Source of the DNA: Clostridia bacterium | GTDB taxonomy: Bacteria; Bacillota; Clostridia; Oscillospirales; CAG-272 | DNA length: 64,000 bases | Reading direction: 5' to 3' | Assembly (NCBI GenBank): GCA_017428635.1 | Contig: JAFRQK010000027.1 | Coordinates: 6,748 to 70,747 of the forward strand | In this document: positions 55,390 to 63,999 of the stretch, piece after piece | How positions within the stretch are numbered: the stretch's first letter is position 1 | How the letters are laid out: the number at the start of each line of letters is the position of its first letter | The notes under the pieces: model-generated | Told to the model about the DNA's origin: nothing | The model's database searches: none | What the model saw: the letters and a program-made list of their open reading frames with translations, nothing else | Made by a program: the position numbers and the translations under genes

Positions 55390-56235
55390 ATGAAAGAACG
55401 TTTTTTGGGTGAAAAACAACTCGAAGAATTCAGGGAACACCTTATCCGCGGAGAAAAAAGCAAGGCGACGGTTGAAAAATACGTAAGAGACGTAGAGGCG
55501 TTTGCATCATTTGTAAAAGGAAACGAGATTTTGAAAGAGACTGTGATAGCGTATAAAAACGCACTACAAAAAGACGGATATGCACCCAGAAGCATCAATT
55601 CAATGCTTGCGAGCGTTAACAGTTTTCTTTCATTTCTCGGGTGGCATGACCTAAGAGTAAAATCCATTCGAATCCAACATCAGATTTTTTGTTCGGAAGA
55701 AAAAGAACTGTCGAAAGCGGAATTTTCGCGCCTTGTTGAAGCCGCAAAAGCAAAAAGTAATGAGCGGTTGAGTATGATCCTTCAAACGATCTGCGGGACC
55801 GGGATCCGCGTGAGCGAACTTCAGTTTATTACCGTTGAAGCGGTAAAACGCGGCGAGGCAATGGTCTCATGTAAGGGAAAAACCCGCTCGGTGTTTATCG
55901 TACGTGATTTACAGAAAAAATTGCTTCGATATTTATCGGAGCACGAAATAACCGCCGGAAGCGTATTTATCACACGCAGCGGCAAGCCCATAAGTCGAAC
56001 GAATATTTGGCGTGATATGAAATCCTTGTGCGTTGAAGCAAACGTTGATCCGGGAAAGGTGTTTCCGCACAATCTGCGTCATTTGTTTGCCCGTGTCTTT
56101 TACGGAATCGAGAAAGATATAGCAAAATTAGCAGATGTTCTCGGTCACAGCAGTATTGATACCACGCGTATTTATATAGTGAGCACCGGCGCAGAACACC
56201 GCAAGCGAATGGAGAGAATGAAGCTGATAATATAA
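55390..56235 (+). CDS. Tyrosine site-specific recombinase (phage-integrase/XerD-like family); predicted invertase of the adjacent switch
   Basis: ATG 55390 lies 5 nt after GGATGTGA (the track TTG is at 55375). N-terminal SAM-like core-binding domain (LEEFREHLIRGEKSKATVEKYVRDVEAF). Catalytic contexts GTGIRVSELQFI (Arg), HNLRHLFA (His-x-x-Arg), GHSSIDTTRIY (His...Tyr). Confidence 0.85.
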   Translation: MKERFLGEKQLEEFREHLIRGEKSKATVEKYVRDVEAFASFVKGNEILKETVIAYKNALQKDGYAPRSINSMLASVNSFLSFLGWHDLRVKSIRIQHQIFCSEEKELSKAEFSRLVEAAKAKSNERLSMILQTICGTGIRVSELQFITVEAVKRGEAMVSCKGKTRSVFIVRDLQKKLLRYLSEHEITAGSVFITRSGKPISRTNIWRDMKSLCVEANVDPGKVFPHNLRHLFARVFYGIEKDIAKLADVLGHSSIDTTRIYIVSTGAEHRKRMERMKLII

Positions 56236-56257
56236 AAAAGCCGCCATTGAGCGGCGG

Positions 56258-60456: not shown

Positions 60457-63400
60457 ATGAAAAAGAAATTGTTATCGTTTGTCTTGGCATTGATTTTTAT
60501 CGTAACTGTAATACCACTTAATAATTTGATGGTATATGCAAATATCGACAATACGCCAACAATTTATGTCGAAAGTACATATGCGGCAACTGGTTCGGCA
60601 ACCGATGTGCACATTAAGATTAAAGACAATCCCGGGATTGCGGGTGCAATAATAACGGTTACCTATGACCAGAGACTTACTCTTACAAGAGCTGAAAACG
60701 GAGAAGCGTTTGAAGCACTTGATTTTACACGAGCCGGTACATATTCCAGTCCGAGCAATTTCACCTGGGACTCAGAAAATGCAGTAACTAACGAAAACGG
60801 CATAATCCTGACATTATCTTTCAATGTTTCAGCGCTCGCAGAGGCAAACGATATACTTCCGATCAGCATTTCTTATCGTCACGGAGACATTTATGACGGA
60901 GAATTGAATTCTGTAACGGCAAATCTTGTAAGCGGTAGTATTACTGTTATCAATTATTTACCCGGTGACGTAAATGATGATGGAATAGTAAACGGAAAAG
61001 ACGTTACTCTCATTAGGCGTTATAATGCCGGCGGTTACGATGTTTCAATAAATGAGGCTGCTGCAGATGTTAATGATGACGGAATAATCAACGGTAAAGA
61101 CGTAACGCTAATCAGACGATATATTGCCGGTGGATATGATGTTGAACTGAAACCTTCTTCACCAAAATGTAATCATAATATGGAGTATTTCAATGCAAAA
61201 GAAGCAACTTGCACTGAAGAAGGGAACATAGAATATTGGCGTTGCTCCATTTGCGGGAAATACTATCCAGACGCAGAGGGAACACGGGAGATTGAGTTGA
61301 CGGATACTGTTGTTCCGGCAAAGGGTCATACTCCAGAGATAATTCACGCCGTTCCTGCAACAACGATGTCGGAGGGTTATACAGAAGGCGTCTGGTGTGA
61401 CGTGTGCAAAACGTGGCTCAGTGGACATGAAAGAATTGAACCCATAGAAGAAAACGAATCAAATATTACTTATCGCTTATGGTACGTTGAGCAAAAGACC
61501 AATAACGGAACGACCGTACTTGTAGAAGATAATTATCTGAAACAGCAGGCTGTCAATAATCCTAATGCAAACACGTACGTTGAGGGAGTCGGTATTTCCG
61601 AATTGGGTAATCCAAGCGTCGACGGATATGATTTCATCGGATGGTTCGAAAGACCGGAAATAAACGCCAACCGTGTTTATTCCATTTCGTCCGAAGAGCG
61701 CGGAGACAAAATACTGTACGCAGTCTGGTCAAAACACGTTTATACAATCACGTATCTTCCCGATTCCGCCGGATCGACTCTTCAGAAGATTACCGAAGAG
61801 ACGTTTACGGTCGATAAGGAGACAGCGCTTCAAGTTCCGTCGTGGCCTAACTTGGTATGGGTTGGATGGTCAGACGAAGACGGAAATATAGTGAAATCTA
61901 TTCCCAAAGGAACTGCGCATGACGTATCGCTGACTGCCAACTGGATGAGTAAGCGGAGTCAAACCGTTCCGAATCTCAGATATTCCTCGTCTGTACCTGC
62001 GATAGTCGATGATTCGGAAAACGGTGTAATAGCATTCGTTTATGAAATCGGAGATATACAAAACGTTCCGATCCAGCAAGTTGAAGAGGGCGTTGAAGGA
62101 AAAGGTTTCAATCTTGTTAAAGGTCAAACGCATAGCATCAGTAAGACTTTCACTCAAAAGATTGAAAACAGCGAAGCAGTTAACATAAGCAATACGATTG
62201 CAAATTCAACCACAAAATCAGATTCTTGGACCCTGACTGAGGATTGGAATGAAAGTACGTCCTTTAGCAGCGAGCATTCAAATGAAGTCACAGAAGAACA
62301 AACTGCAAAAGCGACACAGTCATTTTCTGCTTCAAATAAGTATTCAATAGGCGCAGGGGTTGGAGGTTCGGTCGAACATATTGACGAAAACGGAAAATCG
62401 AGTAAGGTCACCAAGTATCAGGGATTTGAAGCTAATTATTCTGCCTCGGTTGGCGCAAATATCGGTCTGGATGTCGGACTCGGAGAAGGTCTTGGACTAA
62501 AAACCGGTATCAGCGGCGAAAGAAAACTCGGACTGGGTTATAAGAACGGCAGAGAGACTGTTGATGAAACAACTGAAAAGCACACCGATAAAACAACCGC
62601 AAACTGGAACGTAAATCAAGGATTTGAGACCAGTTCGTCTATGAGTGCTTCCAGCGAATTTTCACAGAAAGTCGGTCAAAGCGTAAAGGATACGTATAAG
62701 TACGGCGAAGTGCTTGATTTCGGGGGGTCCAACAGTAATACGGTTTCCAGTTCCAATACCAGTTCTGAATCAAGAGAATACGGATCTTCAGTTACATACA
62801 GCACTGAAGAGGGTAACAGCTATACTGTCAATGAGACCTTGACTGCCGATGCGGATGCAGGATATTACAGGAAAGTTCTTGCGGCAAACTTCCGTGTGTT
62901 TGCAGTTGTTCTCTACGATGTTGAAAACAGCGCCTTCAGTACGATGACATACAGTCTGAAGATCAACGATTCGGAGCATTTGTTTACGGATTATTCTACG
63001 GTTTCCTCTTTTGACGACTATGAGAACGGTGTGCTCCCGTTCTCGGTTCCGGTGTTTGTAAGGGATTATGTATACAACGTTATCGGAGCGTCCGAAGGTC
63101 TGAGAATAGACAGTGAAACCGGAATTATCGAGGGATATGGGTATAAAGATCCGACAACCGGTATTTGTTACAAAAAATCAAATTATGCCTCTCAGACGGA
63201 ACCGGAAGTATGTGATACCGACGTTATTATTCCGAAATACGTGGTTGTTGATATTGATGCTACACACAAACAGATAGTTGAGGTGAAAGGTATCTCTGCG
63301 AGCGCTTTCAGCGGAACCACGATTACCTCTATCCACCTTAACGAAGGGGTTACGGAGATTCCCGACGGAGCATTTGAGAATTGTGCTCAGCTCCATTATA

Positions 63401-63999
63401 TTACCGGTCCGAATATTACGAAGATAGGTAGCAATGCATTCAAAGATTGCACTTCTCTTTGTGAGATGGAACTGTCTGAACAGATTACTGAGTTGGGAGA
63501 AGGCGCGTTTGACGGTGATGACGGAGTTACCGTTTACGCCTCCACTCCTGAGATCGCCGAGACCGCAATGAATTTCAACGTCGGCTATCTTACCATCGAT
63601 TTAAGCAAAATGGAAGGATCATTGGATAACAGTTTGCTGAAGACGGCCGACAATATGACACATTTCACGCTGAACGGCGGAGGTAAGACTTTCAATAATC
63701 TCGAGATCGAATCAAGCGCCGAGACGACGGAGATCAACAATATCACAATCACAAGCAGTGTGAGTAATCCTCTGATGATATCGTCGCAGAACGTTTATCT
63801 TGGATACGTCAGAGTTTCTGCAAATGGTATTGCTCTGAATCTTACGAACGATTCAACTACAGTTACTTTAAACGGTAACAACTATATTGAATCTTCTTCA
63901 GAAAACGCGATGCTCAGCAAGAGTATACAACTGATTGAAAAGGAGGGTTCATCTTCAATCGGGAAGCTGCGTCTTAAAGGTAACGCGCTTTATTACGGA
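60457..63999 (+). CDS. 5' part (>1180 codons, no stop before the window end) of a giant secreted protein: cohesin + dockerin + Cys-rich modules + Listeria-Bacteroides repeats + Ser/Thr/Gly-rich beta region + BspA-type LRRs
   Basis: Not in the ORF track. ATG 60457 lies 7 nt after AAGGAG. I translated the frame to base 63999 and met no stop codon. Signal peptide MKKKLLSFVLALIFIVTVIPLNNLMVYA. Cohesin: IYVESTYAATGSATDVHIKIKDNPGIAGAIITVTYD...NFTWDSE...ILTLSFNV. Dockerin: GDVNDDGIVNGKDVTLIRRYNAGGY...DVNDDGIINGKDVTLIRRYIAGGY. LRR: ISASAFSGTTITSIHLNEGVTEIPDGAFENCAQLHYI...IGSNAFKDCTSL. Confidence 0.75.
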   Translation, partial: MKKKLLSFVLALIFIVTVIPLNNLMVYANIDNTPTIYVESTYAATGSATDVHIKIKDNPGIAGAIITVTYDQRLTLTRAENGEAFEALDFTRAGTYSSPSNFTWDSENAVTNENGIILTLSFNVSALAEANDILPISISYRHGDIYDGELNSVTANLVSGSITVINYLPGDVNDDGIVNGKDVTLIRRYNAGGYDVSINEAAADVNDDGIINGKDVTLIRRYIAGGYDVELKPSSPKCNHNMEYFNAKEATCTEEGNIEYWRCSICGKYYPDAEGTREIELTDTVVPAKGHTPEIIHAVPATTMSEGYTEGVWCDVCKTWLSGHERIEPIEENESNITYRLWYVEQKTNNGTTVLVEDNYLKQQAVNNPNANTYVEGVGISELGNPSVDGYDFIGWFERPEINANRVYSISSEERGDKILYAVWSKHVYTITYLPDSAGSTLQKITEETFTVDKETALQVPSWPNLVWVGWSDEDGNIVKSIPKGTAHDVSLTANWMSKRSQTVPNLRYSSSVPAIVDDSENGVIAFVYEIGDIQNVPIQQVEEGVEGKGFNLVKGQTHSISKTFTQKIENSEAVNISNTIANSTTKSDSWTLTEDWNESTSFSSEHSNEVTEEQTAKATQSFSASNKYSIGAGVGGSVEHIDENGKSSKVTKYQGFEANYSASVGANIGLDVGLGEGLGLKTGISGERKLGLGYKNGRETVDETTEKHTDKTTANWNVNQGFETSSSMSASSEFSQKVGQSVKDTYKYGEVLDFGGSNSNTVSSSNTSSESREYGSSVTYSTEEGNSYTVNETLTADADAGYYRKVLAANFRVFAVVLYDVENSAFSTMTYSLKINDSEHLFTDYSTVSSFDDYENGVLPFSVPVFVRDYVYNVIGASEGLRIDSETGIIEGYGYKDPTTGICYKKSNYASQTEPEVCDTDVIIPKYVVVDIDATHKQIVEVKGISASAFSGTTITSIHLNEGVTEIPDGAFENCAQLHYITGPNITKIGSNAFKDCTSLCEMELSEQITELGEGAFDGDDGVTVYASTPEIAETAMNFNVGYLTIDLSKMEGSLDNSLLKTADNMTHFTLNGGGKTFNNLEIESSAETTEINNITITSSVSNPLMISSQNVYLGYVRVSANGIALNLTNDSTTVTLNGNNYIESSSENAMLSKSIQLIEKEGSSSIGKLRLKGNALYYG

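Follow-up and report, generated by a model that had tools for sequence, protein, structure and literature searches.

We analysed a 64,000-nt stretch of DNA (contig JAFRQK010000027.1 of assembly GCA_017428635.1; hereafter the window) from an uncultured gut Clostridia bacterium, the final 9 kb of which is occupied by an island of low guanine-plus-cytosine (GC) content. The island holds four genes, all on the plus strand, for a tyrosine recombinase, a lipoprotein, a collagen-like stalk protein and a large protein with a cohesin and a dockerin, termed here the payload protein. A short segment bounded by inverted repeats lies between the recombinase gene and the other three. We consider it likely that this is a promoter inversion switch of the fimS type ahead of a three-gene operon for a surface structure, with switch and operon sitting together on the island. 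The sequence anatomy, the membership of a larger switch family, inversion in relatives and the conserved order of the cargo genes were seen directly. We infer that the segment also inverts at this locus, that the three genes are co-transcribed, that the stalk trimerises, that its cohesin pairs with the payload dockerin and that the structure has an adhesive role.

The recombinase and the adjacent segment

The recombinase gene (55390-56235, plus strand) encodes 281 amino acids. The protein matches Pfam family PF00589 (Phage_integrase) with an E-value of 7e-23 (81.6 bits; cut-off 27.1) and has a SAM-like domain (Phage_int_SAM_1) at its N-terminus. Its catalytic residues R, K, HxxR, H and Y, located in GIRVSEL, CKGKTR, HNLRH, LGHS and TRIY, align with those of the XerA structures 4a8e and 5hxy, confirming the tyrosine recombinase of the initial annotation, which had been made from the letters alone. 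Scores remained below the equivalog cut-offs for XerA (141 bits vs 220), XerD (126 vs 330) and XerC (118 vs 335); by these profiles the protein is Xer-like and not a member of any of the three families. It also scored far below the cut-off of the FimB/FimE-type invertase subfamily (25-26 bits vs about 221). The enzyme is presumably the invertase of the adjacent switch. An alternative TTG start at 55375 was discarded: the corresponding protein is not on record, and public gene calls use the ATG at 55390.

Two repeat arms of 24 nt each (left, 56258-56281; right, 56497-56520) follow the gene. They are 100% complementary and enclose 215 bp (56282-56496); in shuffled sequence, 0 matches to such a repeat pair were obtained, placing it above chance. 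Each arm contains the near-palindromic core ACATAAT-CGGT-ATTATGT. Tyrosine recombinases act on core sites in which two inverted binding elements flank an asymmetric centre, and, given this known mechanism of the family, the core of the arms would fit such a site. A third copy of the core, which would permit excision or inversion of the whole island, was absent from the window and from L001, a longer contig of the same organism whose shared part is identical.

Within the segment lies a predicted sigma-70-type promoter with an extended -10 element (TTGACT-17-TGtTATTAT; minus strand, 56356-56328). It matches the consensus in 10 of 12 bases in addition to the extended -10, on sequence evidence only, and is aimed at the 3' end of the recombinase gene. 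With the promoter directed away from it, the operon should be OFF in the orientation sequenced. Computed inversion of the segment would place the promoter approximately 80 nt upstream of the lipoprotein start codon, facing the operon. The right repeat ends 19 nt ahead of this start codon, and the intervening stretch holds only a ribosome-binding site, so that a fixed promoter between switch and operon is ruled out by lack of space.

Two hairpins accompany the promoter. The first is an intrinsic terminator on the minus strand, in the gap that separates the left repeat from the recombinase stop codon (56231-56257; hairpin and U-run, free energy -10.4 kcal/mol), which should stop OFF-state transcripts before they enter the recombinase gene in antisense. 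The second, also followed by a U-run, is located on the plus strand inside the segment (approximately 56417-56476; -23.2 kcal/mol, z-score -3.6) and probably blocks OFF-state read-through out of the recombinase gene.

A family of related switches

Relatives of the recombinase number in the thousands in metagenomes; the best 120 are 64-100% identical to it, and more than 500 relatives, at 68-79% identity, each have a similar repeat pair beside them. A scan of one genome per species yielded 537 loci, nearly all in metagenome-assembled genomes labelled Clostridia, Ruminococcaceae, Acutalibacteraceae or Oscillospiraceae, often with several loci per genome. The statistics of the switch family given below rest on 68 usable genome loci. 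In these, the repeat pair begins approximately 25 nt past the recombinase stop codon. Most arms measure 15-26 nt and show the consensus ACATAAT-NNNN-ATTATGT(TG), and the inner segment spans 212-353 nt. In 64 of the 68 loci, an extended -10 promoter lies at a conserved distance from the distal repeat. The promoter faces the recombinase (OFF) in 54 loci and the cargo (ON) in 10, and its direction was ambiguous in four.

Using our own RNAfold-based scan for terminator-like sites (a hairpin followed by a T-run), we found such a site between stop codon and left repeat on the minus strand in 57 of the 68 loci and on the plus strand in none. We also considered the inner-segment terminator as a strand-specific feature of the family and rejected it. 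Terminator-like sites occur there on both strands in the relatives (53 and 45 of 64), and the element is therefore not discriminating.

The central tetranucleotide of the core varies between loci and also between paralogous copies within one genome. Such differences could keep paralogous switches from recombining with one another. Paralogous invertons with identical arms (ACATAAT/ATTATGT) and different central 4 nt were found in the sets L021/L033, L029/L031/L085, L028/L077 and L050/L062.

Inversion was seen in several sets of relatives. L068 and L082 align collinearly in both flanks (96-99% identity), but between the flanks the segment with its repeats runs in opposite directions (97.6% identity). 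Likewise, the segment of L055 is reversed relative to those of L035, L051 and L077, at 85-90% identity. In a third set, the P0036 lineage, contigs L103 and L107 carry the segment in the opposite direction to six other contigs (including L101), with flanks 100% identical and inner segments 99.6% identical in reverse; all these contigs encode the same recombinase, which is 75% identical to that of the window. Homologous loci are thus found in either orientation, and the breakpoints fall precisely within the repeats, a pattern that is the signature of site-specific inversion in natural populations.

In the P0036 contigs (L101-L108) the switch lies directly upstream of a gene for a non-ribosomal peptide synthetase (NRPS) of 1409 amino acids and occurs in both orientations between samples, so the locus looks like a phase-variable NRPS. 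In addition, three contigs (L026, L030 and L073) terminate 43-49 nt past the recombinase stop codon, at the end of the left repeat. Mixed orientations would give an assembly-graph branch at this position, with which these ends are consistent without proving it.

What lies behind the switch varies strongly: more than 25 unrelated genes take the first position across the 68 loci. The commonest cargo, found in 12 loci (L015, L025, L034, L036, L040, L061, L063, L064, L069, L075, L078 and L090) and in both orientations, starts with a gene for a protein of 370-470 amino acids that begins with a motif like IIKYEGDNS. This gene is followed by genes for a small membrane protein and zinc-ribbon proteins (gene lists including L015, L025, L034, L069, L075, L078 and L090).

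A stalk and payload cargo on a low-GC island

The island extends from approximately 55,220 to 64,900, beginning beyond the terminator of a LOG-family gene (55234-55259). With the exception of the GC-rich collagen repeats, its GC content is 0.38-0.46, compared with 0.55-0.63 across the preceding 55 kb; on L001, it returns to 0.60 immediately past the final island gene. The initial annotation had described co-oriented elements on an AT-rich island, and both the shared strand and the base composition agree with this. The three cargo genes are separated by 29 and 12 nt and, like the first of them, are preceded by ribosome-binding sites. A terminator-like site or stable fold was sought in these two gaps and none was found, as had been proposed for them. 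On L001, the payload gene is followed first by terminator-like hairpins and further on by a gene for an ABC transporter, which has a promoter-like site of its own.

The lipoprotein gene (56540-57034, plus strand) encodes 164 amino acids. The signal peptide ends with the lipobox ISAC, and four copies of a 23-residue motif of the type KSAYELAVENGYxGTxxEWLxSL follow. At least 11 copies of this helical motif are present in the stalk protein, and the motif also matches phage tail-fibre families of the PHROG collection. A Pfam search with the lipoprotein matched no family.

The stalk gene (57064-60444, plus strand) encodes 1126 amino acids. A signal peptide ending in ALA-AD precedes three tandem SLH repeats (SLH model, 1.8e-27), as in SLH-type wall proteins. 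Collagen-like runs and helical motifs then alternate, and a Flg_new module and a C-terminal cohesin are also present (PF00963; 8e-11, 42.7 bits vs a cut-off of 24.1). The protein contains 121 G-X-Y triplets in seven runs, the longest of 44 triplets (Pfam Collagen, 3.5e-48). The stalk would trimerise through these runs, and the triplets would span about 104 nm if a triple helix formed. Against the streptococcal SclB model the stalk scored 225 bits, under the family cut-off of 325 bits. A lipoprotein built of the helical motif of the stalk, and a stalk with an SLH anchor, collagen-like runs and a cohesin tip, had both been read from the sequence initially, and both descriptions hold.

At the DNA level, the collagen runs consist of tandem 18-nt units that specify (GKDGVD)n; the two largest arrays contain 21 and 11 of them. 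Because public contigs from this organism are interrupted or diverge at these arrays (57922-58302 and 58489-58688), the length of the stalk may vary between strains. The window contains at least eight further regions with SLH repeats (about 473-1027, 12660-13202, 18204-18713, 23982-24578, 28957-29544, 44517-45059, 46489-47013 and 48465-48992), including two tandem paralogues approximately 86% identical in DNA (44589-45049 and 46519-46998). The host depends heavily on SLH anchoring.

The combination of motif and collagen in the stalk strongly matches phage tail-fibre PHROGs (e.g. phrog_14726 at 1e-87) and the recombinase matches phage integrase families. Together with an island GC content 12-15 points under that of the host, this would be compatible with repeats and recombinase being the integration machinery of a mobile island, or part of a prophage remnant with tail-fibre genes, instead of a regulatory switch. 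However, the repeats bracket only 215 bp of intergenic DNA and not the island, the locus lacks a third core site, and the relatives invert exactly this segment. Moreover, no other phage gene is present, and the proteins bear signal peptides as well as SLH, cohesin and dockerin modules. We therefore regard an origin of this kind as highly improbable.

The payload gene starts at 60457 on the plus strand and runs to the window end at 64000; the last 298 of its 1479 residues lie past this end and were taken from L001. The module order is signal peptide, cohesin, type I dockerin, a Cys-rich region, Flg_new, a Ser/Thr/Gly-rich region, BspA-type leucine-rich repeats (LRR), a second Flg_new and a Trp/Tyr-rich C-terminal domain. 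The N-terminal module is 47% identical to the stalk cohesin (E-value 5e-42), and several payload homologues have a recorded PF00963 match. The dockerin (Dockerin_1, residues 169-223; 46 bits vs a cut-off of 22.9) matches solved type I dockerins at 5e-10 and contains two calcium-binding segments of the type DVNDDGxxNGKDVTLIRRY. The LRR region contains LRR_5, and its BspA-type repeats match solved cell-surface LRR proteins. Modules of the LRR and Flg_new types are typical of adhesins. No catalytic, carbohydrate-active or carbohydrate-binding module was found in the payload with Pfam and NCBIfam. Because the dockerin protein carries no enzyme, the system is neither a cellulosome nor an amylosome.

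The initial annotation had credited this giant protein with possible pore-forming modules besides the cohesin, dockerin and LRR. The latter three are present, but a pore-forming module is not supported: Pfam (E-values up to 0.1), NCBIfam and PDB sequence searches with payload residues 540-930 were empty, and a profile of residues 580-870 retrieved nothing from the PDB at E-values up to 10. The AlphaFold model of the middle region was unusable, with a predicted local distance difference test (pLDDT) score of 43, and the Ser/Thr/Gly-rich middle region gave no match to the beta-pore-forming toxin families (aerolysin/ETX-MTX2, MACPF/CDC) in these searches. For the 210 C-terminal residues (1270-1479; 18875-19504 of L001, past the window end), an all-beta model with a pLDDT of 87 was obtained, for which Foldseek found no relative in PDB or BFVD (TM-scores around 0.1).

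To examine how widely this cargo occurs, we approached it from both ends. From the recombinase side, cargo of the window type was found in four of the 68 loci (L021, L027, L050 and a truncated L083). In L021, L027 and L050, the stalk has the helical motif, collagen runs, Flg_new and a cohesin at its C-terminus, and the gene immediately behind it encodes a payload relative of 1525-1621 amino acids; L027 is in the ON orientation. From the payload side, the family comprised 817 matches at E-values up to 1e-10, and the best 120 were nearly all 1340-1700 amino acids long with a shared architecture. Three of five payload-side contexts (L094, L097 and L100) contained a recombinase, repeats with the core motif, a cohesin-ended stalk and the payload. 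The context L095/L096 has SLH-cohesin proteins without a recombinase. In L098/L099, a LytTR response regulator gene and a histidine kinase-like gene upstream (5006-5737 and 3635-4933) take the place of the recombinase switch, which suggests alternative regulation of the same cargo.

Counting also L170/L189, in which the recombinase is 56% identical and the core motif the same, at least eight other lineages carry a cohesin-ended stalk and a dockerin protein behind the same switch (L021, L027, L050, L094, L097, L100 and L170/L189, as well as L083, which breaks off within the stalk gene). The anchor of the stalk varies, being a lipobox in L021, L050, L097 and L170, an N-terminal membrane segment in L027, L094, L099 and L100, and SLH repeats in the window and L095. 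A separate lipoprotein next to an SLH-anchored stalk is particular to the window lineage among the switch loci. The N-terminus of the lipobox-type stalks resembles the lipoprotein that is separate in the window, suggesting that the anchor end has been split off or replaced in the window layout. The arrangement proposed initially thus recurs as recombinase, inverton, cohesin stalk and dockerin protein, but not in its exact five-part layout, the lipoprotein and the SLH anchor being lineage-specific.

In all complete contexts examined, down to 35% identity, a cohesin-ended protein is encoded directly upstream of the dockerin protein. It is this conserved adjacency alone that suggests that the stalk cohesin pairs with the payload dockerin. 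The organism also encodes a host protein of 799 amino acids (47073-49472, minus strand; host-like GC content) in which three SLH repeats and a transglutaminase core accompany a cohesin and a C-terminal dockerin. This cohesin shares only 28% identity with those of the island, and the dockerin shows no detectable similarity; the organism thus seems to have at least two cohesin-dockerin specificity groups, and the distance fits a private specificity of the island pair.

With other cohesin and dockerin proteins encoded in the genome, such as this one, and with payload cohesin and dockerin only about 3 residues apart, the switch could be real while the two modules do not pair. The dockerin may then bind its own or host cohesins, and the stalk cohesin may recruit other dockerin proteins. 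The constant adjacency of the two genes argues against this, as does the fact that the island cohesins form a group of their own, far from the host cohesin in the window. We consider such a lack of pairing unlikely and favour binding of the payload to the stalk.

Several observations weigh against the proposed switch and operon. Exact-protein look-ups gave 13 loci of the same organism (L001-L013) from several samples, 12 of which span the switch, and the window and all 12 of these contigs are in the OFF orientation. The ON form of the locus was found neither in these contigs nor in a metagenome collection scanned with a 29-mer of the inner segment, which gave no match. L007 breaks off only 2 nt inside the left repeat, a position unlike that expected of an inversion-caused branch. 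Both orientations were thus not seen at this locus on assembled contigs, which give only the majority orientation. A promoter-like site within the 3' end of the stalk gene (60298-60327) may allow the payload gene to be expressed partly independently; such sites occur at the rate expected by chance (6 found vs 6.0 expected). Our reading does not account for the role of the separate lipoprotein. Finally, among 20 dereplicated clusters of distant metagenome relatives of the payload with at least 7 kb of upstream DNA, a recombinase was present in only one (L170/L189). Because most payload relatives have no upstream recombinase, inverton control is not intrinsic to the cargo; on the contexts compared, the cargo pair occurs far more widely than does its control by an inverton.

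The uniform OFF state would also be expected if the switch were locked or very rarely used here and the island were effectively silent in this lineage. However, the 24-nt repeats are perfect, the catalytic residues of the recombinase are all kept and the three large genes are intact. An OFF majority (54 vs 10) is also found among relatives in a family that demonstrably inverts. We judge a silent island to be quite unlikely, and retain the working promoter switch as our preferred explanation. Since only OFF was seen at the window locus, inversion there is argued from the family. The invertible promoter of the initial annotation is accordingly backed by perfect repeats, an internal promoter and relatives in both orientations, but by only one orientation at the locus itself.

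Known systems, proposed mechanism and significance

Type 1 fimbriae of Escherichia coli are controlled by the recombinases FimB and FimE, which act on an invertible promoter segment, fimS, with 9-bp repeats ahead of the fimA operon for a chaperone-usher pilus. The window shares with this system a tyrosine recombinase gene upstream of a short promoter-bearing segment and a surface-appendage operon downstream, an arrangement for ON/OFF phase variation. It differs in its Xer-like recombinase, in its 24-nt repeats that each contain a palindromic core site, in its Gram-positive host from the Clostridia and in its cargo, a putative cohesin-dockerin assembly. The fim switch is the closest system in architecture and CwpV/RecV of Clostridioides difficile the closest in biology. 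The latter also combines a large phase-variable wall-anchored protein of the Clostridia with a tyrosine recombinase that inverts a short upstream segment. In CwpV, the fixed promoter reportedly lies outside the segment, the OFF orientation forms a leader terminator and recV is encoded elsewhere. In the window, by contrast, the promoter lies within the segment, the recombinase gene is adjacent and the anchor is SLH, compared with CWB2 in CwpV; CwpV is also not known to involve the cohesin, dockerin and collagen modules that are all present in the window locus.

In cellulosomes, anchoring scaffoldins with SLH repeats tether the complex to the wall. The window locus resembles these systems and the amylosome of Ruminococcus bromii, in which cohesin-dockerin pairing builds surface complexes of Ruminococcaceae, in having cohesin and dockerin modules that would presumably pair. 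In R. bromii Amy4, a cohesin and a dockerin bind each other and the protein self-aggregates (PMC4611034). Unlike in the amylosome and in cellulosomes, the scaffold of the window is a collagen-like stalk with one cohesin per chain, it is placed under an inverton, and no catalytic domain was found in the dockerin protein. Long G-X-Y runs and an expected trimeric stalk projecting a C-terminal domain are also features of Scl1 and Scl2 of streptococci, BclA of Bacillus and collagen-like phage tail fibres. The window stalk differs in having no LPXTG anchor, and its tip cohesin would recruit a second protein instead of serving as the functional head.

A 2025 survey of a defined gut community described inverton group 139 of Clostridia, which is intergenic and has a gene of tyrosine invertase group 35 beside nearly every member, with repeats of 13-25 nt, inner segments of 206-228 nt and orientation shifts measured in culture (PMC11892184). 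The window switch family resembles this group in geometry and is probably the same family, as judged from the published description (PMC11892184). That survey covers cultured community strains, and the window's cargo is not described in it (PMC11892184). A full-text literature search for cohesin and dockerin together with collagen-like proteins or phase variation returned only two unrelated reviews, and neither the cargo nor its inverton control was described there. The initial annotation had suggested that the combination as a whole was undescribed. This can be upheld for the cargo only, because a published survey has already listed invertons of gut Clostridia that are controlled by neighbouring tyrosine recombinases (PMC11892184).

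According to the mechanism we propose, the recombinase encoded upstream would bind the core site in each 24-nt repeat and invert the 215-bp segment. In the OFF state, the internal promoter would fire leftwards into the dedicated terminator, while the inner hairpin would stop transcripts running on from the recombinase gene; together with the conserved outer terminator, this hairpin would keep the OFF state tight. In the ON state, the promoter would be turned towards the operon and the three genes would be co-transcribed. The stalk would then be exported and held on a wall polymer by its SLH repeats, forming a trimer of approximately 100 nm through its 121 triplets and presenting three C-terminal cohesins. 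The secreted payload would dock on these cohesins by its type I dockerin, with the LRR and Flg_new modules displayed as an adhesin. The N-terminal cohesin of the payload, a paralogue of the stalk cohesin, may bind further payload copies and so lengthen the structure, for which the self-binding Amy4 of R. bromii offers a precedent (PMC4611034).

These elements can be joined in a wider reading, each part of which we put forward only tentatively. The appendage might be a new one for Gram-positive bacteria, consisting of an SLH-anchored, trimeric collagen-like stalk of approximately 100 nm. Its three tip cohesins might seed a self-extending chain of payload proteins, each dockerin sitting on the cohesin of the previous copy. 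The resulting fibril might be non-covalent and independent of sortase, with its production switched ON and OFF. The switch in turn might be a portable cassette of recombinase, terminator and private core sites that has repeatedly been joined to unrelated cargo, for instance the fibril, NRPS genes, SPFH/zinc-ribbon systems and TasA-like fibres. The central tetranucleotides might insulate the paralogous copies of this cassette.

Phase variation of surface structures plays a central part in the way gut bacteria deal with phages, immunoglobulin A and changing niches. To our knowledge, it has been well studied in Bacteroides and a few pathogens and hardly at all in the abundant and mostly uncultured Oscillospirales. 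A related locus (L100) occurs in genomes labelled unclassified Ruminococcus (GCA_024433635.1), and the model would be directly testable if these are cultured isolates. The locus ties a widespread and demonstrably active inverton family of Clostridia to a concrete, conserved cargo and shows a portable inverton cassette of this class in use. It also points to a use of cohesin and dockerin outside polysaccharide degradation, in which an LRR adhesin would be mounted on a collagen-like stalk.

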